A stretch of DNA of 64,000 nucleotides, taken from positions 66,864-130,863 of the forward strand of contig DAOTXS010000097.1 of the NCBI GenBank assembly GCA_034435055.1, written 5' to 3'. The notes beneath the pieces were generated by a model that worked only from the letters and a program-made list of their open reading frames with translations, did no database searches and was not told the origin of the DNA. Position 1 is the first letter of the stretch. Every line of letters starts with the position of its first letter. Positions 1,599 through 47,225 of this stretch are shown one piece after another. Source of the DNA: Anaerolineae bacterium (lineage in GTDB: Bacteria; Chloroflexota; Anaerolineae; UBA4142). Position numbers and translations under genes: made by a program.

Positions 1599-4047
1599 TG
1601 CCATTTTCAAAAACCAATTGCAACACTTTTGCAAACTTGTCGATCTGCGCTTTTGCCAATCCGTACTTGACTTTTTCGCTCTGACCGACAACGACGAATT
1701 TTATAGCATACTTGTCGAGCAAAGTCAAAAGGTCTTTGGTATCCAAGGTTTGATAGATGCGTTGAATATCGCCCGCGCGGTCGATGCCGTTGCTGGGATC
1801 GAAATACAATTTGCTGTTGCCGCGCCACTGTGATTCGTGCCCCGCCCAACCCAACACGGTTGGCAAGCCGGTCGCCATTGAAATCCGATTGCCGTACGAA
1901 TATTCATCGCCCGGCGCTTCCAAGATCGTCGCGCCGCGCGGCGCGTTCGCGTTCAACCATTCGATTGCCGCATGATCGTCGGGGTTCGTCGCGCGAATCC
2001 ACGCAATACCGTCAAGGGTTGGCGGATTGCGAAAACCATTCGCGCGGTCGGGAATCGCGAGCGCGGGATAGATCAAACTCGCGCCGAGTAGAATTGTCAA
2101 AGCGACAATCCACGCGCCGCGTGCCAAACCGCGAAGCGATTGCAAAAGATAAACCATCGCGTACGTTCCCGCAATCGCAAACAGAGTCCACGCTTGAAAA
2201 TAAAATTTGAACACCGTGTTCATCCGCGAGCCGAACTGATCGCGCAGATACACAAACTCGACGCCGAACGTGAGCAAGAAACCGGTGAGCGCGAGCAACA
2301 ACGCAAACGTCACACTTGCATCGTCGATGCGAAGCGAAATGAGAACCACAATCGACGCGAGGAAAAGCGCGAGCAGAATAAAGAGCCACGGATCATCGAT
2401 CCACGGACGAAAGTAAGCGCCGAGGACGAGTGTCAAGAGATTGCCCGATGCGTTTGGCATCGCCGCGCGGGCTTGATCCTGCAACGCCGGCGTGAGTGCG
2501 AGAATGGTCAGTGCAAGCCCGGCGACGACGAGTGGAAACAGAATCGCGGCGGCGAGAAATGGCGCGGCGCGGCGGAACCACGCGCGCAAATTCATTTCGG
2601 TTTGCTCGCGCGTGAGTTGAATGATCCACGCGCCGAGTAAGAAAACAAACAAGCCAAACATGATGAGGTATTGATGCAGGCGTGTTTTGACAAAGAGCGT
2701 GGGGAGAATTCCGCCGGCTTGTGATTGAAAACTGACGAAGAACGGCAAGTACATCAAGATGCTGGCGATGCCCAATGTCGCGGCGAAAAAAATTACGTCG
2801 CGCGTGACATTTGTGTTCCATTCACTTTCGGCGCGATACCGTGCGATGGCAAACGCGGCGACCAAAATAAAACCGTACGGCAAAATGTCCCAGGAGTTGA
2901 GGAAGAACAAGCCGCCCAAGACCAGCGGATAAATTCCAAATTCCAAATTCCAAATTCCCAATAATGTTTGTTGAGATTTGAGATTGGGTATTTGAGATTT
3001 GGCGTTGAGCAGATTGAGTGCGACTGCAAGCGCGAGCAGGACAAACGGCAATGCGAGGACGTGCGGATGTAAATCGCCTAAAAGAAAACTGAATTGCGGA
3101 AACTCGTCGATCACTTCAACCGAGTTGCCGCCGATGACATCGTGCACCACCCGTGACGCGCGCCACCACCACCAATTGTCGGTGGGAATCCATGTGCCGT
3201 TGACTGTCGCTTGCGCGAGTCCTTTGATGTCGAGCCATTGCCAGAAATCGTCCGGCAGAATGCCGCGATTGTGCAGAATCTCGAACACGGATTCCAAATT
3301 GCCAACGACGGTCAAAAATATCGGCGCAAAAAAAGATAACGCCATTGCGCTCAAAGTTGGTATTTTAAATTTCGAGTCCCGAATCAAATTGTACGCGACG
3401 CCGTACGCGCCGGTTGTACCTAGTGCAAAGAGCGTAGCGATGGCAAGATTGAACGCCATACTCGATGGAATCCCGCTCACCAGCGTTAGCATCGCAACGA
3501 TGACGTAGCCAAAGTAGTAATAACTGATTGCGTAACCGGACAGCCACGGATCGAGCGGGGGAAAGCGTTCGCTTTGCAAGACACCGTTGAGAAACGCAAA
3601 CTCCATCGGTTTTTCGGTGAAGGTGATTTCCGGCATATACGCCCGCACGAAAACCCACAGCAAAAATGCGAAGGTGAAAACGAGTTCAGTAGCGAGGATG
3701 GTGGATGTGTTGGAGCGCAACCAATCGGCGAAGGACGGAGGACGAAAGACGAAAGACGGAGGTTCATCCTCGGTAATCGGTCTTTGGTCATCGGTCATCG
3801 GTCGTCCTGCGAGCCACCAGCTCAACGCCGCGACGCCGATCACCACAAGCAAAATTGCGCCGCGCGTGTTGGTTAGAAAACCAAGCGATGTCAAAAGCCA
3901 GAACGGGTACGCGACCAACAAAAGACCAAGTGGTTTGGTGAACGCATAACCGCGATCCGGCAAGTTGCGGAAAAATCGAAAGGCAAGCGGCAAAACTGCC
4001 AGCCCGATTAATTCAAGTAACAGCCACCAAAGCAAGACTTCTAGCAT
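1576..4047 (-). CDS. Chlor_Arch_YYY (DUF2298-type) integral membrane protein, 823 aa
   Basis: Long ORF with ATG at 4047. It has many predicted TM helices and the YYYxG motif 'AISYYYFGYVIV'. Its N-terminus (LPDRGYAFTKPLGLLLVAYPFW) is paralogous to residues ~745 onward of the 1563-aa protein. It carries two in-frame heptamer-hairpin insertions. Confidence 0.8.
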   Translation of the reverse strand: MLEVLLWWLLLELIGLAVLPLAFRFFRNLPDRGYAFTKPLGLLLVAYPFWLLTSLGFLTNTRGAILLVVIGVAALSWWLAGRPMTDDQRPITEDEPPSFVFRPPSFADWLRSNTSTILATELVFTFAFLLWVFVRAYMPEITFTEKPMEFAFLNGVLQSERFPPLDPWLSGYAISYYYFGYVIVAMLTLVSGIPSSMAFNLAIATLFALGTTGAYGVAYNLIRDSKFKIPTLSAMALSFFAPIFLTVVGNLESVFEILHNRGILPDDFWQWLDIKGLAQATVNGTWIPTDNWWWWRASRVVHDVIGGNSVEVIDEFPQFSFLLGDLHPHVLALPFVLLALAVALNLLNAKSQIPNLKSQQTLLGIWNLEFGIYPLVLGGLFFLNSWDILPYGFILVAAFAIARYRAESEWNTNVTRDVIFFAATLGIASILMYLPFFVSFQSQAGGILPTLFVKTRLHQYLIMFGLFVFLLGAWIIQLTREQTEMNLRAWFRRAAPFLAAAILFPLVVAGLALTILALTPALQDQARAAMPNASGNLLTLVLGAYFRPWIDDPWLFILLALFLASIVVLISLRIDDASVTFALLLALTGFLLTFGVEFVYLRDQFGSRMNTVFKFYFQAWTLFAIAGTYAMVYLLQSLRGLARGAWIVALTILLGASLIYPALAIPDRANGFRNPPTLDGIAWIRATNPDDHAAIEWLNANAPRGATILEAPGDEYSYGNRISMATGLPTVLGWAGHESQWRGNSKLYFDPSNGIDRAGDIQRIYQTLDTKDLLTLLDKYAIKFVVVGQSEKVKYGLAKAQIDKFAKVLQLVFENGNVRIYAR
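2931..3002. repeat. Heptamer-periodic imperfect hairpin repeat (AAATTCC x4 / TGAGATT x3-4), in-frame in a CDS
   Basis: The sequence is aaattcc aaattcc aaattcc aaattcc caataatgtttgt tgagatt tgagatt gggtatt tgagatt tgg. On the minus strand it translates as SQIPNLKSQQTLLGIWNLEFGIYP within the 823-aa protein. Confidence 0.85.
3730..3807. repeat. Heptamer-periodic imperfect hairpin repeat (GAAGGAC/GAAAGAC arm vs CATCGGT/CTTTGGT arm), in-frame in a CDS
   Basis: The sequence is gaaggac ggaggac gaaagac gaaagac ggagg ttcat cctcggt aatcggt ctttggt catcggt catcggt cgtcc. It translates as MTDDQRPITEDEPPSFVFRPPSF in the 823-aa protein. Confidence 0.85.
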
Positions 4048-4053
4048 CGATGT

Positions 4054-6467: not shown

Positions 6468-9400
6468 TTGTTCACTTGATAAATCGTCACGCCGGGATTT
6501 TGATAAACCAGTGCGAGGGCGCCGGCGCGCGCCATTGCGTCAAACTTTGCCAGCCCGGCGTGATCGTAAAACGCCATTTCTAATTCGCCGATGTACACAT
6601 ATCGCACATCGAAACGCTCCATCTGCGCCAACGCGATTTGCGGATCGCGGGTATTGTAAATCGTTCGCACAGTTTCCATTCGCCGGTCGATGATGCCGCC
6701 ATCGATGATCGAACGTTGTTGTTTCTGATGCCAGTCCCAGCCGATGACCGTCGGCAAGCCAGTGTAAATCGATACGCGCGATGCCCAGTGATACAACGGC
6801 GCATTGCCTTCCAAAATCACCGGCGAGCCGATTACATTCGCGCGCAACCACTCGAACGCTTGACGGTCGTATTCCAACGTCATATCCCGATCGCGGTCTT
6901 GATACGTGGCTGTTTTTAAAAATTCCATTCCATTCAAACCCGCAGGCGAACCAAGCACAAAGCGATCCGTTACTTTGGCGCGCGTCGCCGTAATCGTGTA
7001 CGTCAAACCAATAACGATGAGGATTGAAAAGATAAACCACCACGCAAAGGGCAAGACCGATGACCGCGGACGGATGACTGCGATATTTTCCTCCGTCATC
7101 GGTTGTCGGTTGTCCATCTGATGCAAGAACGCGATTCCGGTTGCCGCCGCGAGCGCGAAGAAATTCCACGCCTGCAAATAAAATTTGAACACGGTATTCA
7201 TTCTGCCAATATCGCCTTTGTACGTGATGAGCTCGACCATCATTGTCAACGCAAGACCGGCGGCAAGCAACAAGGCGATAAAACGTTCGCGTGCGTCGAG
7301 TTCCGGGCGCAAGAAAAGTAGCCCGGCAAGCACGAGCAACGGGAACGCTAGTGTAAACGCGGCGAGATTCAGGACAAGGAAGAAGGCTTCGATGACGATG
7401 AACGCAACGATAATCAGCGGTTGCCAGGTTGCCCACACCTCGCGTCGCGCTGGCGTATCGAATGTGCGCGCGATGAGATAGGTTGCAATCGCAAAAAGGA
7501 AAATGCCGTGAACGATAAAATACTGACCAAGTGTTGTGCGTTCGCCCTTCCACAATTCGGTGGCGAGATACGCGGTGGCAAAATTACTGACGAACGGTTG
7601 ATACAACCAACTGCTCAAAACGAAAACTGCGCCAAATCGCCACGCGACGCCGACGACCAAATCCAATGTGATTTCGCGACGCCGCGCGTACTCACCAATC
7701 GCAATCGCCGCGCCGATGACGAGCAAGTACGTCGGATAATCGGCGTAGTTGATTGCGCGCAGTCCGCCGATGACCAACGCGGCGACAATAACTTCGACGA
7801 CAGCGATTGGTGAAATTTGGATGACCGGCCAAAAAGGCAGGCGCGCGTCGTCGTTGTGCTCGCGCGCACGGAGCGCGTAGTTGATCGCGACGCCAATCGC
7901 AAGCATCGTGAACGGGAGTGCCATCAAATGCGCGTGCAAATCGCCGTAGAGAAAAGTAAAAAATGGAAATTCATTGATCGTGTCCGGAATTGTCCGCGTG
8001 GCGTTCCAATACCACCAACCCAGCGGCACATCGAACGACGCGCCGTCTGCGATTACGCGCCACGCGCCGGTGAAAATACTCGCCAGGATTGCGCCGGGAG
8101 CATCCAAGTTGCCAGCGCCAATTTTCATCAGTGTTTGTCCAATGAGAATGATTTGTCCCAGGTTGCCGATGACGGCGACGAACAAAACGGCGAGCAAGCC
8201 GGCGAAGATTGCCGGTTTTGTCATTGCGAGGAGCATTTTTTGTGACGTGGCAATTTCCAAGTTACTTGGGGATTGCTTTGCCGCTTTGTGGTTCGCAATG
8301 ACAGTGCAAGTCAGATTGAACGCCGCACTGAACGCGCCCGCGCCGAGCAACGCAAAGAACGTTGGGAGCGCGAGATTGTACGCGACTTCCGGGACGATGC
8401 CGGAAAATTTGATCAGCGTTGCGGTGATGAGTTGTCCAAAGTAATAATAGTTGATGAACCCGCCGGCAAACCACGGGTCGTACGCCGGAAACCACGTCGA
8501 TTTGATCATCGCGTTAAGATATGCAAAATCCATCGGCTTTTCGCCGCCGTACCACTGATGCCACAAATCTGGATTGCCGTAACGAATTAACAAGAACAAT
8601 CCAAAACACGCAAAGAAAACTAATTCTTCGACAAGGATGAGCCGGCGTTGCGCGCGTAGAAAATTTGCAATTTCGCTTCCGTGTCGCCAAACGATAATTG
8701 CACTGACGAGTGCAAGCAATACGATTATTAAACCGATGCTCGTGCGATTGAACGGGAGCCAATGGTAACTCGCCAAAATCCACGCGCCCCACGCGACGAG
8801 CAAAATTCCCAGCGATTTGGCAAACACATAACCGCGATCAATCAATCCGCGGAAAACGACAAACGCAACTGGAAACGCGAGCCAGCCAATCGACTGAATC
8901 AGCGCGAGCCACCCGATCACCGGCATTTGATTGATGAAATCATTCGGATGAAAAATTTCTGACCACGTGCCGCCGCTCTGTTGCGCCGCACGATCCGTTG
9001 GAGTGAGCAAAAGGGCAGTCTTTGCCTGCGTCGCTTCGCGGGGCCAGAAACGATACACTTCTTCCAGATCGATGCTGTTGAACATTGCGGAAATTTTTTC
9101 CGCCGAAAAGCGCGGCGACTTTTTAAAGATTGTTACTTTCGGATGATCGTAAACGGTAAATGTTTCGTCTGCGTCGTCGTCGATAAATTCGATGCCGAGC
9201 AATTGCGGACGCGATGTAAACTCGGCGACTTGATCGAAACCCAACGTGCCATCGAACAGCCACGCGTAATATTTCGTCGTCAGTGGATAACGCATCGGCA
9301 AGCGCGGAATCGAACCGTACAAGCGATTACTCGACAGGATGATGTAATCAGCGTCGTTGAGCCACCGAATCGCTTGCGCGCGTTTTTCCGGTGTATCTTC

Positions 9401-11155
9401 ATCGTACCAGTTCATCAACCCGTCGTCGCCGGGAAATTGCGCCGGCAAGCCGCGATACATTCCGCCAAACGGGTCGCGGCCATCGATGCGCAAGGGGAGC
9501 GGATCGTCCCAGCGTTCGTTCGCCAGTACCGAATCGCGCGGCACATGATCAAAAATCCAACGCGATGCGGTAACGCGCGAAACTGGACGGGTGTAGATCG
9601 ATGTGAACGCCGTCGCATAAAATAACGTGTAGCCGATGACAAAAATCGTTAGCGTGGCGACGGCGATGCGCGCAACTGTTGCATAACGCATCGCGCGCGC
9701 GGCGCGATCCCAGAGTTCGATCAAGAGCCAGCCGGCGCAAAGCGCAAGGAACGGATAGATTTGCAAAAAGTATCGCAGAGGTTTGACCCATTGTTGCCCG
9801 GTGTATGCAAACGTGATGCCAACCCAGGTTACGATAAGTAAATGTTTCCATTCACGAAAACGGATTAAGCGATATAGCGCAAACGCAAACCCAGCCCACG
9901 CGGTCAAACCTACTGCTATTCCCAAACCCCACCGCACCATATTTTCGAATGGGAAGAGGTACGCCGGGCGATCGGTCCATTGATGTCCGGGCGGATAATC
10001 TGCGCGCCCCGCCACAAGTTCGCCGATGTATGCCATATTGTCGGAGAATTGTGTGTTGACACCGCCCGCCCAAAATAATGCTACATCGAACATTGCACTC
10101 ACTGCGCCGTGACTGAGATCGAATGTTGGAATTTTCGGCGCGACGAAACTGGGTCCGTTGGCGGCGTACGGTTGAAAGATGCGGAAGATAATCAATGTGG
10201 CGATGCCGGCAATCGCCAGTCCGCCGAACGCGCGCGTGAATGCGGACATCAACGAATCGCCGATGGTCGGTGCGCTATTTTGCCAACCGACGGAGACGGA
10301 AACCGGCCCCAGCGATTTTTCGGTGACGATCGTTGCCGGTTGCTCTAGCGATTCCGGCGCATCTGCCGGCGATTGGGTGTGCGATGCCTGCCAGTACGCT
10401 CGCCATGCCGATGCCGCGACGATGACCGTGACGAATGGTGCGATGTTGATCCGCCCAGCCAGCGCGAGTCCGAACATCACGCCGGCAAATATAAAAGCTT
10501 GCCAATGCTTGCGCTCCGAAATATCGAGCGCGAACCAGAATGCCAGCAAGATTGGAACATTGGTAAACGTATCGACAGTGAAAAAATGCGATTGCTGAAT
10601 ATCGAGTACCGATGCTGCGAGAAACAATGCGCCGAGTAATGCCGCGCGCGTGTCGTACATTCGGCGACCGATGAAAAAAATCAGCAAGACGGTCGAAAGA
10701 TCGAATAACGCAGACAAGACGCGCCCGACGAGATGAACGTTGCCGTAACTGGCTTGCCCCAATATCTCGCCAACGATGCGTGTGAGAAAAATCGGAAAAG
10801 TGCCGTAAACAAATAGCCCAAAGTTGTGATTGTACGGATTGAGTGGCGAACACGCTGTATCGAAATATCCTCCCCATTTGGCGCAACCTTCAGGCGGACG
10901 ACTTGCCACATCGAAGCCGGGCAGCTGCAACGCGGAGGTAACCATCGTGAGAAAACGTTCGTCGGGATGGAGGTGTTGCTCCGCATCCCAGTTTACGCCG
11001 GTCAATCGCAAGACTGCGCCGAGCAGAAGAATCAGCGTCAGCGCACCGGCGACAAACCAGCCGGGAAGTGTGTGGTTGTTGGGAGGTTGGATTGTTTGAT
11101 CGAGTCCGTTGATCGGTTCAGTCATATTTTTTGATTGGGAGATTTTGTAAATCAT
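6464..11155 (-). CDS. Giant 1563-aa membrane protein: N-terminal GT39/ArnT-PMT-like half fused to a complete Chlor_Arch_YYY domain
   Basis: Uninterrupted ORF. The N-terminal half has a PMT/ArnT-like beginning (HLHPDERFLTMV and many TM helices). From ~aa 745 (FRGLIDRGYVFAKSLGILLVAWGAW) it parallels the 823-aa protein and includes 'FINYYYFGQLITA'. The start could instead be the ATG at 11125. Confidence 0.75.
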   Translation of the reverse strand: MIYKISQSKNMTEPINGLDQTIQPPNNHTLPGWFVAGALTLILLLGAVLRLTGVNWDAEQHLHPDERFLTMVTSALQLPGFDVASRPPEGCAKWGGYFDTACSPLNPYNHNFGLFVYGTFPIFLTRIVGEILGQASYGNVHLVGRVLSALFDLSTVLLIFFIGRRMYDTRAALLGALFLAASVLDIQQSHFFTVDTFTNVPILLAFWFALDISERKHWQAFIFAGVMFGLALAGRINIAPFVTVIVAASAWRAYWQASHTQSPADAPESLEQPATIVTEKSLGPVSVSVGWQNSAPTIGDSLMSAFTRAFGGLAIAGIATLIIFRIFQPYAANGPSFVAPKIPTFDLSHGAVSAMFDVALFWAGGVNTQFSDNMAYIGELVAGRADYPPGHQWTDRPAYLFPFENMVRWGLGIAVGLTAWAGFAFALYRLIRFREWKHLLIVTWVGITFAYTGQQWVKPLRYFLQIYPFLALCAGWLLIELWDRAARAMRYATVARIAVATLTIFVIGYTLFYATAFTSIYTRPVSRVTASRWIFDHVPRDSVLANERWDDPLPLRIDGRDPFGGMYRGLPAQFPGDDGLMNWYDEDTPEKRAQAIRWLNDADYIILSSNRLYGSIPRLPMRYPLTTKYYAWLFDGTLGFDQVAEFTSRPQLLGIEFIDDDADETFTVYDHPKVTIFKKSPRFSAEKISAMFNSIDLEEVYRFWPREATQAKTALLLTPTDRAAQQSGGTWSEIFHPNDFINQMPVIGWLALIQSIGWLAFPVAFVVFRGLIDRGYVFAKSLGILLVAWGAWILASYHWLPFNRTSIGLIIVLLALVSAIIVWRHGSEIANFLRAQRRLILVEELVFFACFGLFLLIRYGNPDLWHQWYGGEKPMDFAYLNAMIKSTWFPAYDPWFAGGFINYYYFGQLITATLIKFSGIVPEVAYNLALPTFFALLGAGAFSAAFNLTCTVIANHKAAKQSPSNLEIATSQKMLLAMTKPAIFAGLLAVLFVAVIGNLGQIILIGQTLMKIGAGNLDAPGAILASIFTGAWRVIADGASFDVPLGWWYWNATRTIPDTINEFPFFTFLYGDLHAHLMALPFTMLAIGVAINYALRAREHNDDARLPFWPVIQISPIAVVEVIVAALVIGGLRAINYADYPTYLLVIGAAIAIGEYARRREITLDLVVGVAWRFGAVFVLSSWLYQPFVSNFATAYLATELWKGERTTLGQYFIVHGIFLFAIATYLIARTFDTPARREVWATWQPLIIVAFIVIEAFFLVLNLAAFTLAFPLLVLAGLLFLRPELDARERFIALLLAAGLALTMMVELITYKGDIGRMNTVFKFYLQAWNFFALAAATGIAFLHQMDNRQPMTEENIAVIRPRSSVLPFAWWFIFSILIVIGLTYTITATRAKVTDRFVLGSPAGLNGMEFLKTATYQDRDRDMTLEYDRQAFEWLRANVIGSPVILEGNAPLYHWASRVSIYTGLPTVIGWDWHQKQQRSIIDGGIIDRRMETVRTIYNTRDPQIALAQMERFDVRYVYIGELEMAFYDHAGLAKFDAMARAGALALVYQNPGVTIYQVNK
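7053..7115. repeat. Heptamer-periodic imperfect hairpin repeat, in-frame in a CDS
   Basis: The sequence is aagaccg atgaccg cggacgg atgactg cgatatttt cctccgt catcggt tgtcggt tgtcc. It translates as MDNRQPMTEENIAVIRPRSSVLP in the 1563-aa protein. Confidence 0.8.
8220..8302. mobile_element. MITE-like palindromic element with GTCATTGCGA...TCGCAATGAC termini, read through in-frame in a CDS
   Basis: Terminal inverted repeats are gtcattgcga (8220-8229) and tcgcaatgac (8293-8302). Its reverse complement aligns with the intergenic copy at 43339-43427. It encodes NHKAAKQSPSNLEIATSQKMLLAMTK in the 1563-aa protein. Confidence 0.7.
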
Positions 11156-11179
11156 AAATCAGAAATCGGAAATCTGCAA

Positions 11180-18065: not shown

Positions 18066-18070
18066 TAGAA

Positions 18071-18098: not shown

Positions 18099-18101
18099 AT
18101 T

Positions 18102-19231: not shown

Positions 19232-19274
19232 GCCTCTGGCGTTTATTCGACGCGCCCGAGGCGTTTGTTTTTTA
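19232..19274 (+). promoter_or_regulatory. Terminator-like hairpin plus T-tract inside the hydrogenase 5' leader (possible attenuator)
   Basis: GCCTCTGGCG tttattcgacg CGCCCGAGGC (10-bp stem, 1 mismatch) is followed by gtttgtttttt. There is no upstream plus-strand gene to terminate. It lies ~90 nt before the small-subunit ATG. Confidence 0.45.
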
Positions 19275-19360
19275 TCGCACCAGCCAAGGAGGTGAATCTA
19301 GCAAAGTATAACGAATCAACTTTACGCGGCAATGGTTCCTCTGATGAAAGGAGTCGGTCT

Positions 19361-20488
19361 ATGAATGACTTGCCCCAGGAGTGGGAAAAAGTTCTCGATC
19401 GCAAAGGGGTTACGCGGCGAGATTTCCTCAAATTCTGTTCGCTGATGGCGGCGACGCTGGTTCTTCCTCCGCGTTACATTGAGCAGATCGCCAAGGCGTT
19501 GGTGACGGTGCCACGTCCGCCGCTGGTGTGGTTGGAATTCCAAGATTGTGCCGGCAACACCGAAGCACTCCTCCGCGTCAGCCGTCCCTCGATTGGTGAA
19601 CTCGTCCTCGACACGCTCTCGGTAGATTATCACGAAACGATTATGGCGCCCGCCGGCAAAGCCGCCGAAAAATCATTGCAAGACACGATTGCCAAGAACA
19701 AGGGCAAATACATCACCGTCGTAGAAGGTTCGATTCCCACGAAAGATGGCGGCATCTATTGCACAATTGGCGGACACACCGCGCTCGACATTGCGCGCCA
19801 AGTGTGCGGCAATGCCGCGGCGACAATCGCCGTCGGCGCGTGCGCGTTTGATGGCGGTTGGCCCTCTGCCTCGCCTAACCCGACCGGCGCGGTCGGCGTC
19901 AAAGATGCCGTCCCCGGCATCAAGTTGATCAACCTCCCTGGTTGCCCCGTCAACGCGGCAAACATTACCGCGACTATCGTCCACTATTTGACCTTTGGTG
20001 AATTGCCCGCCGCCGATCAACTGGGACGTCCTCTCTTTGCGTACGGTAAACGCATCCACGATAACTGCGAACGTCGTGCCCATTTCGATGCCGGTCAGTT
20101 CGTCGAAGAGTGGGGCGATGAACATCATCGGCAGGGGTGGTGTCTCTACAAGATGGGGTGCAAAGGTCCGGCCACCTATCACAACTGTCCCGTCGTTCGC
20201 TACAACGATGGCGTGAGTTGGCCCATCGGTTCGGGACACGGTTGCGTCGGCTGTAGCGAACCCAGTTTTTGGGACACGATGTCACCGTTCTATCGGCGCC
20301 TGCCCAACGTGGAGGGCTTGGGGGTCGAAGTGCAAGCCGATCAACTGGGCTTGGGGATCGTCGGTGGTGTGGCGGCGGCGTTTGCGGCGCACGGCGTCTT
20401 GAGCGCGATTCGCGCGCGGCAACAACCCATCGCGCGGCATGGTGAGGAAACCGTCAACGCTCAAGCCGATGAAGGAAAGCGAGGTTAA
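19361..20488 (+). CDS. hupS: [NiFe] uptake hydrogenase small subunit (group 1, Tat-exported, C-terminal TM anchor)
   Basis: It has the Tat motif 'TRRDFLKF' and conserved blocks LDTLSVDYHETIMAPAG, VGACAFDGG, LPGCPVN, HDNCERRAHFDAG, GWCLYKMGCKGP and GHGCVGCSEP. A C-terminal hydrophobic helix is present. The RBS aaaggag sits 7 nt upstream of ATG 19361. Confidence 0.95.
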   Translation: MNDLPQEWEKVLDRKGVTRRDFLKFCSLMAATLVLPPRYIEQIAKALVTVPRPPLVWLEFQDCAGNTEALLRVSRPSIGELVLDTLSVDYHETIMAPAGKAAEKSLQDTIAKNKGKYITVVEGSIPTKDGGIYCTIGGHTALDIARQVCGNAAATIAVGACAFDGGWPSASPNPTGAVGVKDAVPGIKLINLPGCPVNAANITATIVHYLTFGELPAADQLGRPLFAYGKRIHDNCERRAHFDAGQFVEEWGDEHHRQGWCLYKMGCKGPATYHNCPVVRYNDGVSWPIGSGHGCVGCSEPSFWDTMSPFYRRLPNVEGLGVEVQADQLGLGIVGGVAAAFAAHGVLSAIRARQQPIARHGEETVNAQADEGKRG

Positions 20489-20490: not shown

Positions 20491-22197
20491 ATGGCAAAGA
20501 TTGCAATTGACCCCATCACGCGCATCGAAGGCCATTTGCGCATCGAAGTTCAGGTGGACGGCGGCAAGGTTACCGATGCGTGGAGTTCCAGCACGATGTT
20601 TCGTGGGATGGAAATCATCCTCAAGGGACGCGATCCGCGCGATGCCTGGGTCTTTACGCAACGCATCTGCGGCGTCTGCACAACCGTTCACGCGGCAACC
20701 TCGGTGCGCGCGGTGGAAAACGCGCTCGGCATTACGATTCCGCTCAACGCGCAGATCATTCGTAATATCATCGAAGGCAGCCAGTTTGTCCAGGATCACG
20801 TCATCCACTTTTATCACCTCCACGCGCTCGATTGGGTGGACATTGTGAGCGCGCTCAAAGCCGATCCTGCCGCCACGGCAAAACTCGCGCAATCCATTTC
20901 GGATTGGCCCAACTCGTCCGAGGCGTACTTCAAGGGTGTGCAAAACAAAGTCAAAGCGTTTGTCGAATCGGGGCAACTGGGTCCCTTTGCGAACGCGTAC
21001 TGGGGACACCCCGCCTACAAGTTGCCGCCCGAAGCAAACCTGATGGCGGTCGCGCACTATCTTGAAGCGCTCGATTGGCAACGCGAGATTATTCGTATCC
21101 ACGCCCTGCTCGGCGCCAAGAATCCGCATCTGCAGACGTATCTGGTCGGCGGGATGTCCATTCCGATTGATCCCAACAGTCAGAATGCCATCAACGCGGA
21201 CAAGATCGCGCTGATGAAAAAGTGGCTGGCGCAAGCGCGTCAGTTCGTCGAAAAAGTGTACATACCCGATCTGCTCGCCGTCGCGCCGTTCTACAAGGAC
21301 TGGGCGGGTTATGGCGCCGGGCTGGGCAACTTTCTGGCGTACGGTGAGTTTCCGCAAGCCGCTGACAACTCGCAACTCTTTTTGCCGCGCGGCGTCATCC
21401 TCAACAAAGACCTGAGCAAGGTCCTGCCGATGGATCACCAAAAAGTTGCCGAGTATGTCACGCATTCGTGGTACGAGTACGGCGCCGGCGATGCCAAGTC
21501 ACTGCATCCTTGGGAGGGAGAAACCAATCCCAAGTACACGGGACCCCAACCGCCGTTCGAGGCGATGGTCGGCGACGGTGCCAAGTATTCCTGGCTCAAA
21601 GCGCCGCGCTACGACGGCAACGCGATGGAAGTGGGACCGCTGGCGCGGATGCTCGTGGCGTATGCGTCGGGGGTCAAGCCGGTGGTGGACACGGTCAATC
21701 TCGTTTTGAAAACGCTCGGCGTCGGACCCGAAGCGCTCTTCTCGACCCTTGGTCGCACCGCCGCACGCGGCATCGAAACGCTTGTCCTCGCGCAGCAACT
21801 GGAGGGCTGGGTGGATCAACTCGCGGCAAACATCAAGCGCGGCGATCTCAAAGTGCACAACGGCGAGAAATGGGATCCATCGAAATGGCCCGCGGAAGCC
21901 AAGGGCTGGGGATTCTTGGAAGCGCCGCGCGGCGCGCTGGGGCACTGGGTACGCATCAAAAACGGCGCCATCGAAAACTATCAATGCGTCGTTCCGTCCA
22001 CGTGGAACGGCTCCCCGCGCGATGCGAGTGGCAAGCGCGGTGCGTGGGAACAAGCGCTCATCGGTACGCCGGTCGCTAATCCCGAACAACCCATCGAAAT
22101 CTTGCGCACCGTCCACTCGTTCGATCCGTGTATGGCGTGTGCCGTCCATGTGGTTGATCCGAACGGGCGTGAGATGATGAGCGTCAAGGTCAAGTGA
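20491..22197 (+). CDS. hupL: [NiFe] uptake hydrogenase large subunit (group 1)
   Basis: The N-terminal motif is 'RIEGHLRIEV...QRICGVCTTVH'. The C-terminal motif is 'DPCMACAVH' followed by a 15-aa extension that the maturation protease removes. Confidence 0.97.
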   Translation: MAKIAIDPITRIEGHLRIEVQVDGGKVTDAWSSSTMFRGMEIILKGRDPRDAWVFTQRICGVCTTVHAATSVRAVENALGITIPLNAQIIRNIIEGSQFVQDHVIHFYHLHALDWVDIVSALKADPAATAKLAQSISDWPNSSEAYFKGVQNKVKAFVESGQLGPFANAYWGHPAYKLPPEANLMAVAHYLEALDWQREIIRIHALLGAKNPHLQTYLVGGMSIPIDPNSQNAINADKIALMKKWLAQARQFVEKVYIPDLLAVAPFYKDWAGYGAGLGNFLAYGEFPQAADNSQLFLPRGVILNKDLSKVLPMDHQKVAEYVTHSWYEYGAGDAKSLHPWEGETNPKYTGPQPPFEAMVGDGAKYSWLKAPRYDGNAMEVGPLARMLVAYASGVKPVVDTVNLVLKTLGVGPEALFSTLGRTAARGIETLVLAQQLEGWVDQLAANIKRGDLKVHNGEKWDPSKWPAEAKGWGFLEAPRGALGHWVRIKNGAIENYQCVVPSTWNGSPRDASGKRGAWEQALIGTPVANPEQPIEILRTVHSFDPCMACAVHVVDPNGREMMSVKVK

Positions 22198-23888: not shown

Positions 23889-24230
23889 ATGCATGAATTA
23901 GGCATCGCTCAGGATATTTTCAAAATTGCAAGCGAGTATGCAGCCAAGCATAACGCGCAGCGTATTACTGCCTTTAACATCGAAATCAGTGCGGCAATGG
24001 ACGAAAGCGAAGAGGCGTTGCGTTTTCATATCGAGAATCTGGCACACGGCACGCTTGCCGAAGGCGCGACCATTGAAATTGCGCGTGTGCCCGCGCACCT
24101 CGTCTGTCTCGATTGCGGCAACGAGTTTGAACTGCGTGATGAGAATGTTGTCTGTCCGCATTGTGCGAGTGTACGCGTGCGTGCGCATTCGCACGACGAT
24201 TTCAAACTGACCAGCATCGAGATCGAGTAA
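23889..24230 (+). CDS. hypA: Hydrogenase nickel insertion protein HypA
   Basis: It has the N-terminal 'MHE' Ni-binding motif and the Zn site 'CLDCGNEF...CPHCAS'. Confidence 0.93.
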   Translation: MHELGIAQDIFKIASEYAAKHNAQRITAFNIEISAAMDESEEALRFHIENLAHGTLAEGATIEIARVPAHLVCLDCGNEFELRDENVVCPHCASVRVRAHSHDDFKLTSIEIE

Positions 24231-26599
24231 TGATCAAACGATTGCGTGCGGAAATTCGCGGCGCGGTGCAGGGCGTCGGTTTTCGTCCGTTTGTTTATCG
24301 GCTGGCGACCGAACTTGCGCTCAAGGGCTGGATCATCAACGATACACGCGGTGTCTTTATCGAAGTTGAAGGAGACGAGACAGCGCTGGCGCGTTTCATC
24401 GAACGCTTGCCAGAGGAAAAACCGCCCCGTTCGATCATTCATTCATTCGATTTGACCTGGCTTGCACCGGTTGGCTTTGCGCAATTTGAAATCCGTCATA
24501 GCGATGAATCGGGCGCGAAAACGGTGCTCGTCTTGCCCGACATTGCCACTTGCCCCGACTGTCTCGCTGAAGTTTTCGATCCAAGGAATCGGCGTTATCG
24601 TTATCCCTTTACCAATTGCACCAACTGCGGTCCGCGTTTTACAATCATCGAAGCCTTACCCTACGACCGTCCCAACACGACGATGCGCCGGTTCACAATG
24701 TGTGCAGATTGCCAACACGAGTACGAAAATCCGCTCGACCGGCGTTTTCACGCGCAACCGAATGCCTGTCCGGTGTGTGGTCCCACGTTAAAAGTTACAA
24801 GTTCCAAGTTCAAAATTGAGAACCTTGAACCTGAAACCTTGAACCTTGAACCCATCGCACACACCGCGCGTCTCCTCGCGCAAGGTTACATCGTCGCCGT
24901 CAAAGGTCTGGGCGGATTTTTGTTGATGGCGGACGCGCGCAACGCTGAGGCGCTGGCACGTTTGCGTGAGCGCAAGCCTCGCCGTGATAAACCGTTCGCG
25001 TTGATGGCGCGCGATCTGGTGCAAGCGCGCACGCTCGTTGAGCTAGACCCCCAAGCCGAAGCCTTGCTCACCTCGCCTGAATCGCCGATTGTGTTGTTGC
25101 GTCGTAAGCACAATGCGCCGGTTGCGGAGAATATTGCACCTGGCAATCCGTACCTGGGTGTGATGTTACCGTACACCCCCTTGCATCATTTGCTCTTACG
25201 CGCGATTGATTTTCCGGTCGTTGCCACCAGCGGCAACTTGAGCGACGAACCGATTTGCATTGACGAAACCGAAGCGGTGCAACGCCTAGGACACATCGCC
25301 GATTTCTTTCTTGTGCACAATCGTCCGATTGCGCGGCACGTGGACGACAGCGTGATGACCATCATGCTAGGCGAGCCGCGATTCTTGCGGCGCGCACGTG
25401 GATACGCGCCGATGCCGGTGTTGCTCAAACACGAGATTCCAACGATTCTGGGCGTTGGGGCGCATCTCAAGAATACAATCGCGCTATCGGTTCGCAACCA
25501 AGTCTTTATCAGTCAGCACATTGGCGATTTGGAAACGCCCGAAGCGATGAAGGCGTTCGAGCGCGTGATCGCCGATTTTCTGAAATTATACGAAGCGACG
25601 CCCATCGCCGTCGCGCACGATTTGCATCCGGATTATCTTTCGACTAAGTGGGCGCACGCGTGGATGACGAAAGACGAAAGACGAACGACGAATGATTCGT
25701 CCTTGGTCGTTCGTCCTTCGTCCTTGGTCGTTGTCCAGCACCACCACGCTCACCTTGCTGCGTGCCTCGCCGAGAATCAAGCCGACCGTGCATTGGGGGT
25801 GATGTGGGACGGTACGGGGTACGGAACGGACGGCACAATTTGGGGCGGCGAATTTTTGCTCGGCGATGCAAAAGATTTTGTGCGCGTCGCGCATCTGCGT
25901 CCGTTTCGCTTACCCGGTGGCGATGCCGCCATCAAAGAGCCGCGCCGTTCAGCGTTTGCATTGTTGTACGCAATGTTTGGTGAAGCGATCATCGAGCGCG
26001 ATGATCTGGCACCGATACGCACGTTGACATCGGCGGAACGCAAGACACTGGTGCAAATGTTGAGCAAAGGAATCAACTCACCGATCACCACGAGTGTCGG
26101 ACGATTATTCGATGGCGTTGCTGCGCTGATCGGTTTACATCCACACGTTTCGTTTGAAGGTCAAGCGGCGATGGCGCTCGAGTATGCGGTAGATGCGACG
26201 GTGAGGGACGCATACCCAATCGAGACGAAAGACGAAGGACGAAAGACGAGGGATTTGTCCTCCGTCGTTCGTCCTTCGTCCTCCGTCCTCGACTGGCACC
26301 CCCTCATCGAATCCGTGTTGAGCGACTTGTCACGCGGCATCGAACGGAGTATTATTGCGGCACGGTTTCATAACGCGCTTGTGCAAGCGATTGTTGCGGT
26401 GGCAAAACAAATCGGCGAGGAAAAGGTTGCGCTGAGCGGCGGCTGTTTTCAGAATCGTTTCTTGACCGAACGTGCGGCAACCGAACTCGCGCAAGCCGGC
26501 TTTCGCGTCTTGTTGCACCAACACGTTCCGCCGAATGATGGGTGTATCAGTTTGGGACAGGTGGTCGTCGCGGCGGCGCGTCTGACTACTAACCACTAA
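24230..26599 (+). CDS. hypF: Carbamoyltransferase HypF
   Basis: It has the acylphosphatase-like 'IRGAVQGVGFRPFVYRLA', two Zn-finger pairs (CPDCLAEV...CTNCGPRF; CADCQHEY...CPVCGP), and YrdC-like and Kae1-like regions. It forms a TAATG overlap with hypA. It contains three in-frame heptamer-hairpin insertions. Confidence 0.95.
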   Translation: MIKRLRAEIRGAVQGVGFRPFVYRLATELALKGWIINDTRGVFIEVEGDETALARFIERLPEEKPPRSIIHSFDLTWLAPVGFAQFEIRHSDESGAKTVLVLPDIATCPDCLAEVFDPRNRRYRYPFTNCTNCGPRFTIIEALPYDRPNTTMRRFTMCADCQHEYENPLDRRFHAQPNACPVCGPTLKVTSSKFKIENLEPETLNLEPIAHTARLLAQGYIVAVKGLGGFLLMADARNAEALARLRERKPRRDKPFALMARDLVQARTLVELDPQAEALLTSPESPIVLLRRKHNAPVAENIAPGNPYLGVMLPYTPLHHLLLRAIDFPVVATSGNLSDEPICIDETEAVQRLGHIADFFLVHNRPIARHVDDSVMTIMLGEPRFLRRARGYAPMPVLLKHEIPTILGVGAHLKNTIALSVRNQVFISQHIGDLETPEAMKAFERVIADFLKLYEATPIAVAHDLHPDYLSTKWAHAWMTKDERRTTNDSSLVVRPSSLVVVQHHHAHLAACLAENQADRALGVMWDGTGYGTDGTIWGGEFLLGDAKDFVRVAHLRPFRLPGGDAAIKEPRRSAFALLYAMFGEAIIERDDLAPIRTLTSAERKTLVQMLSKGINSPITTSVGRLFDGVAALIGLHPHVSFEGQAAMALEYAVDATVRDAYPIETKDEGRKTRDLSSVVRPSSSVLDWHPLIESVLSDLSRGIERSIIAARFHNALVQAIVAVAKQIGEEKVALSGGCFQNRFLTERAATELAQAGFRVLLHQHVPPNDGCISLGQVVVAAARLTTNH
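24792..24853. repeat. Heptamer-periodic imperfect hairpin repeat (AAGTTCC arm / AACCTTG arm), in-frame in hypF
   Basis: The sequence is aagttac aagttcc aagttca aaattgag aaccttg aacctga aaccttg aaccttg aaccc. It encodes KVTSSKFKIENLEPETLNLEP. Confidence 0.85.
25663..25736. repeat. Heptamer-periodic imperfect hairpin repeat (GAAAGAC arm / TCGTCCT-TGGTCGT arm), in-frame in hypF
   Basis: The sequence is gaaagac gaaagac gaacgac gaatgat tcgtcct tggtcgt tcgtcct tcgtcct tggtcgt tgtcc. It encodes MTKDERRTTNDSSLVVRPSSLVVV. Confidence 0.9.
26222..26290. repeat. Heptamer-periodic imperfect hairpin repeat (GAAAGAC/GAAGGAC arm / GTCCTCC-GTCCTTC arm), in-frame in hypF
   Basis: The sequence is gaaagac gaaggac gaaagac gagggat tt gtcctcc gtcgttc gtccttc gtcctcc gtcctc. 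It encodes ETKDEGRKTRDLSSVVRPSSSVL. Confidence 0.9.
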
Positions 26600-26618
26600 C
26601 CACTGATCACTGTTCACT
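26584..26618 (+). repeat. Tandem heptamer array (NNNCACT x5), single arm, spanning the hypF stop
   Basis: The sequence is gactact aaccact aaccact gatcact gttcact, followed by the hypC RBS ggagg. Confidence 0.7.
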
Positions 26619-26628
26619 GGAGGTTTTT

Positions 26629-26886
26629 ATGTGTCTCGGTGTTCCCGGCAAAGTGATAGCGATTCAACCCAACTCAGTTGGGATGACGATGGGCAAAGTG
26701 GATTTTGGCGGCATCGTCAAAGAAATTTGCCTTGCCTATGTGCCTGAGGTCAAAGTCGGCGAATACGTTATCGCGCATGCCGGCTTTGCGATTAGCACGC
26801 TGGACGAAAAAGAAGCGCGCGAGGTATTTGAAACGCTCAAGCAGATTGACGATTTGTCGTCGTTGGATATTCCGCAACCAGACTAA
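26629..26886 (+). CDS. hypC: Hydrogenase assembly chaperone HypC/HupF
   Basis: It has the N-terminal 'MCLGVPGKV' with the essential Cys2. The protein is 85 aa. Confidence 0.95.
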   Translation: MCLGVPGKVIAIQPNSVGMTMGKVDFGGIVKEICLAYVPEVKVGEYVIAHAGFAISTLDEKEAREVFETLKQIDDLSSLDIPQPD

Positions 26887-26946
26887 CGACGAATGACGAA
26901 TGACGAATGCATTCCTTCGTCCTTCGTCTTTGGTCCTTGGTCGAGG
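26884..26946. repeat. Heptamer-periodic imperfect hairpin repeat (GAATGAC arm / GTCCTTC arm), hypC-hypD intergenic
   Basis: The sequence is taacgac gaatgac gaatgac gaatgca ttccttc gtccttc gtctttg gtccttg gtcgagg. It lies just upstream of the hypD ATG at 26953. Confidence 0.85.
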
Positions 26947-26952
26947 TGTGAG

Positions 26953-28037
<1,085 letters not shown>

Positions 28038-29293: not shown

Positions 29294-29310
29294 CTAACAC
29301 AAACAAAGAA

Positions 29311-29340
29311 CGGGCGAGAAATTTTCTCGCCCGTTTGGTT
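29311..29340. terminator. Bidirectional rho-independent terminator
   Basis: Perfect 10-bp stem CGGGCGAGAA att TTCTCGCCCG, flanked by T-rich tracts on both strands. Confidence 0.7.
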
Positions 29341-29420
29341 GTTGTGGGGGAAACATTGTTGGACGCCACCGAATAAATTCGGCGTCTAATATAGGCGCTA
29401 CGTCTCTGTGAACACCAATG

Positions 29421-42266: not shown

Positions 42267-42270
42267 ATCG

Positions 42271-42307: not shown

Positions 42308-42312
42308 TCATT

Positions 42313-46329: not shown

Positions 46330-47173
46330 AGCCAAAGCATCCGTACGGATTTATCGTGTAACCGAAAAAAGCCGCCAAGCCGTCGACGGGGTCATCATTG
46401 GCGAGAGTCAATGTGGATTGTTTGTCAACGGCATCGAAGTGGTTACGTTCATGGCGACGGTGCGCAATTTGCATCACCTCGCGCTCGGTTTTCTCGCATC
46501 GGAAAAATTGATTAGTGGCTTGAATGACGTTGCATCGATTCGCGTTCACGAGGCGGCAGATCAAGTGTATTGGTACATTCCATCGTTGGGTGTCAACGAA
46601 GTTCGACACATCGCGCCGTGCGAAGGCGGCGTGGGCGCAATCGAAGTGCGTCTCACGCACAATGCTTTTCGCCTGCCGCCGCATCGTACGTTGACGAGTG
46701 GCTGCGGCGGCGGTGTAACATTCGACGATTTGTCGCAAGCGCAAACGCCGCTCGATTCCAACCGCACAATCCGCGCCGCGCAGATTTTTGCGATGATGCG
46801 CGAGTTGAATCATCGCGCCACGTTGTACCGCGAATGTCGCGGCGTGCATACTTCTGCGCTTACCGACGGCGCGCAGTTGCTTGCGCTCGCCGAAGATGTG
46901 GGGCGCCACAACACACTCGACAAGATTCGCGGCGATTGCATGATGCGTGGCGTGAACACGCACGATACGATGCTCATTACCACCGGACGCATTTCATCGG
47001 AGATGATCACCAAAGCCGCCAAGATGCGCGTGCCGATTGTCGTTTCGCGCACCTCGCCGACGCATTTGGCGATGCAATTGGCGCGCGCGTGGAATATCGC
47101 GCTGGTTGGTTATGCGCGTGGCGGCGAGATGCAAGTGTATACCGGGATTGAAAGAATTATTGTAGACGGATGA
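46322..47173 (+). CDS. fdhD: FdhD-family sulfurtransferase (formate dehydrogenase/molybdoenzyme accessory protein)
   Basis: It contains 'LFVNGIEVVTFMATVRNLHHLALGFLASEKLI', 'TSGCGGG', 'GVHTSAL' and 'EDVGRHNTLDKIRG'. Confidence 0.9.
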   Translation: MFEAKASVRIYRVTEKSRQAVDGVIIGESQCGLFVNGIEVVTFMATVRNLHHLALGFLASEKLISGLNDVASIRVHEAADQVYWYIPSLGVNEVRHIAPCEGGVGAIEVRLTHNAFRLPPHRTLTSGCGGGVTFDDLSQAQTPLDSNRTIRAAQIFAMMRELNHRATLYRECRGVHTSALTDGAQLLALAEDVGRHNTLDKIRGDCMMRGVNTHDTMLITTGRISSEMITKAAKMRVPIVVSRTSPTHLAMQLARAWNIALVGYARGGEMQVYTGIERIIVDG

Positions 47174-47225
47174 CCGGAGACGGAAGACCGGGCATAACGG
47201 TCATCCGTCGCCGGTCTTCGGTCGA
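47165..47225. repeat. Heptamer-periodic hairpin repeat (GACGGAA/GACCGGN arm vs CGGTCNT arm) at the fdhD stop
   Basis: The sequence is gacggat gaccgga gacggaa gaccggg cataa cggtcat ccgtcgc cggtctt cggtcga. This forms a ~26-bp stem with 4 mismatches. The fdhD stop codon (47171-47173) lies inside the left arm. Confidence 0.85.

Follow-up and report, generated by a model that had tools for sequence, protein, structure and literature searches.

Palindromic heptamer-array repeats read in frame within hypF and other genes of an Anaerolineae bacterium

Several classes of short bacterial repeat provide a backdrop for the locus presented here. [quoted passage not shown] In repetitive extragenic palindromes (REPs), a GTAG or CGTC tag at one end stays unpaired: the GTAG type, with a stem of 5-13 bp and a loop of 2-20 nt, is tied to REP-associated tyrosine transposases (RAYTs), and the CGTC type has a stem of 8-9 bp, a loop of 4-5 nt and no known dedicated transposase (Di Nocera et al. 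2013, PMC3733652). Heptameric repeats such as those of Xanthomonas (GGGAATC) and Nostoc are over-represented intergenically, include some inverted pairs and vary between close relatives (PMC4692102). Here we analyze three blocks of inverted heptamer arrays that are read through within the hydrogenase maturation gene hypF, on a 64,000-nt stretch of an Anaerolineae bacterium genome (GenBank assembly GCA_034435055.1, contig DAOTXS010000097.1, positions 66,864 to 130,863 of the forward strand; hereafter the window, whose numbering is used throughout). At a probability of roughly 0.6, we favor the explanation that the blocks are non-autonomous palindromic heptamer-array repeats of an Anaerolineae-type Chloroflexota lineage, tolerated and translated only in permissive loops.

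The host gene (plus strand, 24230..26599) encodes the carbamoyltransferase HypF, 789 aa from the ATG at 24230, and is a single unbroken ORF (24161/24230-26599) whose frame is intact across all three blocks. Its product matches the solved Caldanaerobacter HypF (PDB 3VTH) with E = 2e-191, and its Pfam domains (Acylphosphatase, two copies of zf-HYPF, Sua5_yciO_yrdC, HypF_C and HypF_C_2) flank the blocks. The gene belongs to a [NiFe]-hydrogenase and hyp operon, where the small subunit (19265-20488) and large subunit (20491-22197) are followed by cytochrome b, HycI, a c-type cytochrome and hypA, and then by hypF, hypC, hypD and hypE. The window holds 15 period-7 runs, against an expectation of 0.34 and a maximum of 2 in 100 first-order Markov simulations, and other periods from 4 to 12 give 0-4 runs each. 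Within hypF, Tandem Repeats Finder (TRF) resolves paired period-7 arrays with 3-5 copies per arm at 24787-24852, 25666-25736 and 26223-26290; blocks 2 and 3 are also the longest two inverted repeats of the 64-kb window (30-nt arms, 83% complementary, 4-nt spacer), and their single-stranded DNA folds with z = -4.9 to -6.3 against dinucleotide shuffles. An Rfam scan of the window returned 0 matches, and a promoter and terminator scan around hypF gave nothing exceeding shuffles.

Element 1 (24787..24852, plus strand, both arrays found by TRF) separates the second zinc finger from the YrdC-like domain and encodes KVTSSKFKIENLEPETLNLEP. Its arms, (GTTNNAA)x4 and (ACCTTGA)x4 around a centre of ~7 nt, correspond to AAGTTCC and GAACCTT in another phase, and it supplants a native loop, QLALWSxxGxxLAExDE, that is seen in the relatives P0006, P0007 and P0026, for a net gain of ~5 residues. 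It is kept in L085, a Joint Genome Institute (JGI) metagenome contig syntenic with the window over ~10.5-32 kb, and in the related loci L001 and L002. Element 2 (25666..25736, plus strand; inverted repeat I2, arms 25666-25695 and 25700-25729) encodes MTKDERRTTNDSSLVVRPSSLVVV and is found immediately 5' of the QHHHAH motif in the Kae1-like domain, with the layout (GACGAAA GACGAAA GACGAAC GACGAAT), centre GAT, (TCGTCC TTGGTCG TTCGTCC TTCGTCC TTGGTC), GTTGTCC and DNA z-scores of -4.9 and -5.6. Element 3 (26224..26287, plus strand; inverted repeat I1) encodes TKDEGRKTRDLSSVVRPSSSV, with ETKDEGRKTRDLSSVVRPSSSVL as the block peptide, and reads (GACGAAA GACGAAG GACGAAA GACGAGG), centre GATTT, (GTCCTCC GTCGTTC GTCCTTC GTCCTCC GTC); its pairing reaches TCGAG/CTCGA at 26219-26293 (z = -5.6 and -6.3), and it sits at a β-hairpin tip in the C-terminal subdomain of the Kae1-like domain (strands 665-668 and 685-688 in the structure model introduced below). 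The L085 copy of element 3 is 97% identical, and L001 has a GACGGAA family in its place. The insert arms would be translated as a charged arm (e.g. TKDEGRK) and a Ser/Val/Leu/Arg/Pro arm (e.g. SSFVLRP). A first-pass annotation of this DNA, made from the letters and their ORFs, had described three paired-heptamer hairpins read without a stop between HypF domains: the positions, the open frame and the three peptides are confirmed and blocks 2 and 3 are indeed strong hairpins, but block 1, though periodic, forms a weak one, and only block 1 is interdomain, since sites 2 and 3 are loops within the Kae1-like domain.

All three blocks fall on alignment gaps in the solved HypFs 3VTH and 4G9I, and the anchor-to-anchor lengths at sites 1, 2 and 3, which have medians of 32, 25 and 37 residues in other phyla, are 37, 38 and 47 residues here. 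An AlphaFold2 model of the protein has a mean predicted local distance difference test (pLDDT) score of 75 and a template-modelling (TM) score of 0.81-0.85 to 3VTH, with pLDDT falling below 50 at residues 197-205, 484-493 and 672-680, which are precisely the three inserts amid confidently modelled parts. The gaps, the shorter HypFs of other phyla and the low pLDDT bear out the earlier proposal that the blocks are inserted and not ancestral, and mapping onto the model places them in low-confidence loops. They are frame-preserving palindromic heptamer arrays inserted into a gene that originally lacked them. The first-pass annotation further anticipated lineage-specific loop insertions in an ortholog alignment; loop insertions are what we find, but they are not private to this genome.

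The 120 closest HypFs (62-100% identical, 758-904 residues), whose named members are Chloroflexi, Anaerolineae or Ardenticatenia metagenome-assembled genomes (MAGs), vary in length at the same three sites, with at least 7 extra residues at site 1 in 62/120, at site 2 in 95/120 and at site 3 in 82/120. The extra peptides represent many families, including TKDEGRRTKDE...SSFVLRPSSFV, DRRPQTADR...AVGGRQSAV, VSGFKFQV...LNLKL and RLEIGDWRLEI...ISNLQSPIS; nested or composite hairpins occur in some relatives (e.g. P0011, P0031 and P0109) and empty sites in a few others (e.g. P0026, P0042 and P0046). Since the same loops are filled in most of the 120 relatives by different families, the three sites are fixed hot spots at which one hairpin family gives way to another. 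EPSP synthase of the same phylum has a hot spot of its own, which is filled in 72/121 sequences by several hairpin families. In a control panel drawn from many phyla (80 HypF loci listed, 1.35 Mb), arrays with a complementary partner are almost absent, with the exception of a Thermoflexales (Chloroflexota) locus with paired arrays. A Thermoflexales MAG (L072), from a different Chloroflexota order, carries ~160 nt of heptamer arrays inside hypF (11222-11383), namely (CAGTAGT/CAGATGT)n, then (CAATCGN)n and (CCAAAAT)n, together with a paired ATTGCGT/ACGCAAT hairpin at 4374-4453. In the control panel, a 22-kb locus of Chroococcidiopsis sp. FACHB-1243 (L031) has 20 period-7 arrays, often with different heptamers adjoining, of which 0/20 had a complementary partner in the partner test; these look like the classical short tandemly repeated repetitive (STRR) sequences of cyanobacteria, unlike the paired Chloroflexota arrays.

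The comparison with L085 provides a direct view of this turnover at the DNA level. Nucleotide identity is 93.2% in hypF outside the blocks, 92.5% at site 1 and 97.1% at site 3, and it falls to 67% at a hairpin between hypC and hypD and to 38.6% at site 2, where the window carries a GACGAAA/TTCGTCC hairpin and L085 a GGTTTCA/TGAAACC one. The latter type is also found at site 2 in L001, L002 and L003, which marks it as the older state in the clade; identity past site 2 picks up again at TGTCCAGCACCAC, and the host codons just upstream of block 2 are altered from REQ to HAW. The best DNA matches of the window's site-2 hairpin are site-3 hairpins (that of L085 at 90% over 60 nt), and a core, GACGAATGATTCGTC, is common to site 2 of the window and site 3 of L002. 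This likeness suggests that the hairpin was copied from site 3, at a distance of 560 bp; its probable template is the site-3 hairpin of the same hypF. As for length changes, in-gene steps are +21 nt at site 3 of L002, in the right arm only, and +63 nt at its site 1, and an array spanning the hypF stop changes by 7 nt. Steps of 21 and 63 nt within the gene and of 7 nt at its non-coding end suggest slippage under a frame constraint.

A metagenome scan for one family (three GACGAAR units, 3-33 nt, then TTCGTCY-TTCGTC) gave at least 128 elements on at least 120 contigs with a median GC of 62%, mostly 55% to 70%, vs. 54% in the window. Further copies outside the window, whose absence the first-pass annotation would have counted as a refutation, are thus present both in metagenomes and in relatives. 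When 1.84 billion representative proteins were searched by phmmer, the 31-residue peptide of site 3 yielded only 4 weak matches, the query being short, low-complexity and uninformative on prevalence. Of the 128 listed elements, 46 are enclosed by an open frame that extends at least 60 codons to either side and 69 are not, the other 13 being too near the end of a contig; positions drawn at random from these contigs count as internal in 55% of cases, so the elements favor gene ends and spacers, with about one-third in genes. Nine of the 10 host ORFs tested belong to known protein families and the tenth has no Pfam match: the hosts comprise EPSP synthase (aroA), a penicillin-binding protein (PBP) transpeptidase, DUF4147/MOFRL (two elements), a nonribosomal peptide synthetase (NRPS), a DEAD-box helicase, PurL, the large subunit of glutamate synthase (gltB), DUF2298 and a membrane protein that matches PTPS_related and YfhO. 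The named nearest relatives of the EPSP synthase host are Chloroflexi and Anaerolineae.

Mitochondrial 'byp' hairpin inserts are skipped by the ribosome, so that neither their frame nor their stops are constrained. The elements studied here depart from this: where a listed element has a long ORF on both sides, the two share a frame in 31 cases and are shifted in 16, where 1:2 would be expected without constraint and where random positions give a background of ~10% 'shifted', and all six in-gene copies of the window are open and in frame. The 31:16 split argues for read-through translation and against ribosomal bypass. Two candidate filters on in-gene copies were tried and rejected. The antisense strand seemed to fold better for the window's in-gene hairpins, but selection against mRNA structure is not borne out by the 46 in-gene metagenome copies, with the sense strand weaker in 26 and stronger in 18 (not significant); and a requirement for stop-free heptamers would be a weak filter, since ~50-56% of all heptamers are stop-free in six frames. 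Some in-gene arms (e.g. GAACCTT) avoid an in-frame TGA only through variant units, an anecdotal observation. The contigs of the GACGAAR family (L087-L206) also bear hairpins of other families, alike in architecture and likewise fixed in polarity (GATTGTA/TACAATC, GAGTTTT/AAAACTC, GTGGCAA/TTGCCAC, GATAGAC/GTCTATC and TACGGAA/TTCCGTA), for example at L110 2014-2069, L189 5448-5504 and 6758-6826 and L118 8640-8686, and extra heptamer hairpins average ~1 per 10 kb on the long seeded contigs.

Taken as a set, the copies reveal an anatomy that had escaped the first-pass annotation, with fixed polarity, sharp GAC...GTC ends and a variable centre. The window and its close relatives have 10 instances of the arrangement (GACNNNN)x3...(NNNNGTC)x3 and the listed metagenome loci, seeds excluded, have 19, against 0 of its mirror image. 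Other families are just as strict, at 13:0 for ATT-first hairpins (GATTGTA-type) and 8:0 for GTT-first ones, the latter partly orthologous copies, and the sole apparent exception is a junction of two adjacent hairpins in L132. Simple compositional rules for this polarity (G-C skew and purine content) fail for some families; it is fixed per family. Left arrays start exactly at the G of GAC in 91/128 elements, a figure that the seed pattern may inflate, and right arrays end exactly at the C of GTC in 89/128, where the seed effect is much smaller; read from the sequence, all six GAC-type elements of the window follow the same GAC...GTC end rule. Pairing ends at the array ends in 101/123 elements, the element span is 42-97 nt with a varying number of arm units, and the centres, with a median of 16 nt, are not palindromic and on average fold no better than shuffles.

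In the window itself, 6/11 arrays lie in frame inside genes, and the sibling copies that the first-pass annotation had noted are indeed present, in frame in DUF2298 and PMT_2/DUF2298 genes and at gene ends or in spacers at 26881-26942 and 47165-47223. An 823-aa DUF2298 ('YYY') membrane protein (ORF 1576-4047, minus strand; Pfam) contains two in-frame elements detected by TRF. The first (3727..3806, minus strand) encodes GRPMTDDQRPITEDEPPSFVFRPPSF, with plus-strand arms (GGCGAAG GACGGAG GACGAAA GACGAAA GACGGAG) and (CGGTCTT TGGTCAT CGGTCAT CGGTC) and an RNA fold of -38.4 kcal/mol; the second (2929..3001, minus strand) encodes NAKSQIPNLKSQQTLLGIWNLEFGIY, with plus-strand arms (AAATTCC)x4.6 and (TTGAGAT)x4.4 and an RNA fold of -23.6 kcal/mol. 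A third, 60-nt in-frame element (7055..7114, minus strand; TRF) resides in a 1563-aa PMT_2 + DUF2298 protein (ORF 6464-11155, minus strand; Pfam) and encodes MDNRQPMTEENIAVIRPRSSV, its plus-strand arms being (GACCGAT GACCGCG GACGGAT GACTGCG) and (CGTCAT CGGTTGT CGGTTGTC), with an RNA fold of -35.3 kcal/mol. These three of the window's six in-gene hairpins are housed at 1576-13174 in a cluster of very large genes resembling membrane glycosyltransferases, which comprises the 823-aa protein, two ORFs without a Pfam match, the 1563-aa fusion and an ORF of 664 aa, the L085 counterpart of which is PMT_2/STT3-like.

Outside genes, the hairpin between hypC and hypD (26881..26942, plus strand; TRF; DNA z = -3.7) reads (GACTAAC GACGAAT x3), centre GCATTCC, (TTCGTCC TTCGTCT TTGGTCC TTGGTC), and its first unit, GACTAAC, contains the hypC stop TAA (26884-26886); L001 and L002 have a related GACGAAT hairpin, L085 the 67%-identical copy mentioned above and L003 none. 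The hairpin between fdhD and moeA (47165..47223, plus strand; TRF; DNA z = -6.5; flanks assigned by Pfam as FdhD-NarQ and MoeA) reads (GACGGAT GACCGGA GACGGAA GACCGGG), centre CATAA, (CGGTCAT CCGTCGC CGGTCTT CGGTC), and includes the fdhD stop TGA (47171-47173) inside GACGGATGA. Two further arrays are unpaired. One (CTAACCA CTAACCA CTGATCA CTGTTCA; 26582..26619, plus strand; TRF) supplies the last hypF codons and the stop TAA at 26597-26599, and the L085 version differs by exactly one 7-nt unit and uses a different stop codon; the other (AAATCAT AAATCAG AAATCGG AAATCTG; 11147..11176, strand unassigned; TRF and period scan) lies where two minus-strand genes meet, overlaps the start called for the 1563-aa ORF and is kept in L085 at 779-808. 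The stop codons of three genes (hypF, hypC and fdhD) thus come from heptamer arrays, and the elements seem to land on, or rewrite, extreme gene 3' ends. At the other end of genes, the mechanically called hypD ORF begins at an ATG inside the hairpin, adding 20 residues (26893-26953), and the conserved HypD N-terminus MKYIDEYR begins at 26954, after a GAGG motif; the L085 hypD is called ~7-9 residues longer than those of L001-L003. Annotations of these genomes probably contain false N-terminal extensions that stem from start codons in hairpins.

Several additional features of the region are recorded here in their own right. Palindromes without 7-nt periodicity occur at gene ends at 29298-29346, 18064-18101, 55373-55415 and 42265-42313, and those at 18064, 55373 and 42265 are bordered by A-rich and T-rich runs and resemble bidirectional intrinsic terminators, so that terminator hairpins of the conventional kind exist in this genome beside the separate heptamer class. 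Between hypF and hypC, relatives carry a small DUF433/DUF5615 gene pair, or DUF5615 alone (L001 2689-3115, L002 4197-4753, L003 12386-12619), from which the window (26600-26628) and L085 are free; the pair looks like a toxin-antitoxin module. Upstream of hypF, L002 and L003 additionally harbor a second copy of hypA and a gene with a CBS domain. Finally, a 498-aa ORF at 61776-63272, with a DUF2079 membrane protein and ruvX as neighbors, has a weak Baseplate_J-like Pfam match (E = 7e-6, no single stretch passing alone).

With these observations in hand, the explanation that we favor can be spelled out as follows. An element is a unit of ~45-95 bp, comprising a 5' arm of 3-5 heptamers (mostly GACNNNN, e.g. 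GACGAAR, with GTTNNAA as a second family), an unstructured, copy-specific centre with a median of ~16 nt and a complementary 3' arm (NNNNGTC), with a fixed polarity and 5'-GAC...GTC-3' ends. Some process would copy elements to new places, including into or over existing hairpins, whose sequence may serve as the template; after arrival, arms would lengthen or shorten by replication slippage, with changes inside genes presumably filtered to multiples of 3. A copy within a gene would survive only where the frame is kept, no stop is read and the added residues fall in a surface loop. HypF would offer three such permissive loops; many other copies lie between genes or over stop codons, and the translated copies would be passengers, disordered loop extensions that add no function.

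A number of our own results weigh against this picture. The hairpin of block 1 is weak, its heptamer periodicity notwithstanding (DNA z = -0.49 sense, -2.53 antisense). Hallmarks of transposition are missing: a direct repeat of at least 3 nt flanks 2/123 elements, vs. 2.6% in a shuffled-partner control, and is therefore no sign of a target-site duplication; no conserved target motif or tag was found in the flanks of the 123 elements; and the Pfam search detected no transposase domain among the ORFs of the 64-kb window, where no RAYT (IS200/IS605-like) gene lies near the elements either. The centres, moreover, comprise 93 different sequences among 97 delimited and have no full-length consensus, with four that recurred once, at least partly on loci carrying the same sequence. 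In-gene copies show no enrichment for lengths that are a multiple of 3 (18/46 and 15/46 under two boundary definitions, the outermost RNAfold pair and unit-wise arm extension), either because host bases were lost on insertion or because the boundaries are off by a few bases. Translation of the inserts is deduced indirectly, from the frame retained in the DNA, and the proposed neutrality of the peptides has to reckon with the lasting occupation of the same loops, which could mean that the extensions are useful. In favor of neutrality, amino-acid constraint within the inserts looks relaxed in the alignment with L085, where differing codons divide 2:5 into synonymous and non-synonymous at sites 1 and 3 and 100:25 in the rest of hypF (Fisher p = 0.007), a contrast that rests on only 7 differing codons in the inserts.

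A broader and much more tentative proposal is that the hairpins are the footprint of an undescribed DNA transaction in Anaerolineae-type Chloroflexota, for instance an activity directed at hairpins or breaks that introduces inverted heptamer arrays, their 5'-GAC...GTC-3' ends fixed, around short filler; they would then constitute a new prokaryotic mobile or repair-generated repeat class. No standard model of short bacterial repeats fits the polarity, the sharp ends, the variable centre and the lack of both a target duplication and a transposase together: a MITE- or RPE-like mechanism accounts for the fixed ends and polarity and not for the variable centre, the variable arm length and the lacking target duplication, and slippage with template switching accounts for the indel pattern and not for ends and polarity shared at more than 100 loci, nor for the swap of a whole hairpin. 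If true, the proposal would mean that surface loops of housekeeping proteins are continually remodelled across a whole bacterial class. As compared to this, the copying of pre-existing repeats into permissive loops remains our preferred account.

It seems unlikely, in turn, that the arrays arise in place, with slippage making and resizing them and intra-strand template switching (quasi-palindrome correction) producing the inverted arm. Indels between relatives in units of 7, 21 or 63 nt, the independent variation in length of the two arms and the lack of a consensus centre, a target-site duplication and a transposase in the window are all as such an origin would have it, and heptameric simple repeats are over-represented in some bacteria, where polymerase slippage has been proposed (PMC4692102). 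Yet the same heptamer family, polarity and GAC...GTC ends recur at more than 100 unrelated loci, mostly of 55% to 70% GC; a whole hairpin has been swapped for one of a different family between flanks that are 93% identical; the replacement resembles a hairpin 560 bp away; and inverted duplication should yield both polarities, where the count is 29:0.

A further mechanism, which we rank as a minority possibility and hold to be quite improbable, is that the hairpins are repair scars, formed when a double-strand break (e.g. at a hairpin or cruciform) receives the same array on both 3' ends and is then joined through filler. The idea predicts much of what is seen: a polarity that is fixed for both strands, ends that are sharp on the host side and constant in phase, copy-specific non-palindromic centres, no target-site duplication, lost or changed host bases and lengths that are not a multiple of 3, nesting in older hairpins and replacement of whole hairpins. 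No bacterial activity is known, however, to extend both 3' ends with one and the same heptamer array, and this analysis found no candidate gene for one; the many coexisting heptamer families would need many templates or very fast array evolution, and the likeness between the site-2 and site-3 hairpins, which extends to centre-proximal bases, fits copying better than fresh synthesis.

We regard it as similarly improbable that the inserts are kept for a function, be it in the mRNA (ribosome pausing at domain boundaries, transcript stability or operon attenuation) or as flexible charged loops of the protein. The same loops do stay filled across a large clade despite their changing content, conservation between the window and L085 is as high at sites 1 and 3 as in the remainder of hypF, and intergenic copies avoid divergent, promoter-side spacers (3/35 vs. 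a 20% control), if only as a weak trend. Against this, the encoded peptide is wholly different between close relatives, substitutions within the inserts are mostly non-synonymous, the sites are empty in some relatives (e.g. P0026, P0042 and P0046), the same elements occur in many unrelated enzymes and, among in-gene copies, sense and antisense strands fold about equally (26 weaker and 18 stronger, as given above). That the blocks are ancestral HypF linkers or assembly artefacts is barely credible: although loop lengths vary in other phyla too (e.g. in L061 and L079 at site 3), the residues are missing from solved structures and most other phyla, the 7-nt periodicity and the palindromic layout lie in the DNA itself, the frame stays open from end to end and the same hairpins recur in independent JGI assemblies, blocks 1 and 3 with few substitutions in L085, block 1 in L001 and L002 and block 3 in L002, which settles the possibility of an artefact that the first-pass annotation had raised.

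In-frame palindromic repeats were formerly a curiosity known mainly from Rickettsia, and they appear here on a far larger scale in a free-living, environmentally abundant phylum, where core enzymes (HypF, AroA, GltB and PurL) are affected at recurrent hot spots with turnover of content. The interest lies less in hypF than in the class-wide repeat system that its three blocks bring to light. For protein evolution, the system is a natural experiment on the random sequence that protein loops tolerate and a steady supply of new loop sequence. For annotation it is a problem, in that the elements give stop codons, spurious starts and 7-residue periodic low-complexity segments in the proteomes of Chloroflexota MAGs.

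No description of such elements in Chloroflexota was found in the literature searched, whose coverage was incomplete, an absence of evidence that agrees with the first-pass annotation, and its likening of the blocks to RPEs and STRRs holds as a resemblance that stops short of the defining features of both. Like RPEs, the elements are in-frame palindromes in unrelated genes at fold-compatible positions (the hypF loops, the DUF2298/PMT_2 genes and 46/128 listed copies). RPE families, however, share a conserved full-length consensus of ~100-150 bp (~150 bp in the first report) together with a conserved peptide, whereas here only the heptamer arms are shared, the centres differ (93 among 97) and unit number is variable; RPEs lack a heptamer periodicity, the same loop is here refilled by different families, and the hosts are relatives within Chloroflexi, Anaerolineae and Ardenticatenia in place of Rickettsia (Alphaproteobacteria). 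REPs and the REPINs built from them are likewise short hairpin repeats, mostly extragenic with some in genes and often at gene 3' ends, and the tetranucleotide CGTC even recurs in every 3'-arm unit of the elements described here (TTCGTCC), but the arms here are tandem heptamers of 20-35 nt in which CGTC is paired and repeated, with no tag in the flank.

The likeness to MITEs consists in terminal inverted repeats with defined ends (91/128 on the left, 89/128 on the right). A target-site duplication and a conserved interior are lacking, no candidate for a related autonomous insertion sequence (IS) was found among the ORFs of the 64-kb window, and the 'terminal repeats' are themselves arrays of variable unit number. 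The small dispersed repeats (SDRs) of Nostoc punctiforme, as reportedly described by Elhai et al. in 2008, are tiny hairpins that insert into heptameric repeats and conserved genes and can be nested; they are said to be 21-27-nt units with a conserved sequence and heptamer arrays as hosts, whereas here the heptamer arrays themselves form the palindrome. Palindromic amphipathic repeat coding elements (PARCELs) encode a 25-residue repeat domain and are hence different (PMC2996958). With the STRRs of Calothrix and Nostoc and other heptameric repeats, finally, the elements share tandem 7-nt units that vary in length and sequence between close relatives, but STRRs proper are described from heterocystous cyanobacteria, are mostly intergenic and have no obligatory inverted partner, whereas inverted pairing, fixed polarity (29:0), fixed ends and in-frame gene residence are the rule here. 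The elements are thus best read as related to RPEs and REPs in their behavior and to STRRs in their periodicity, and as members of none of these classes.

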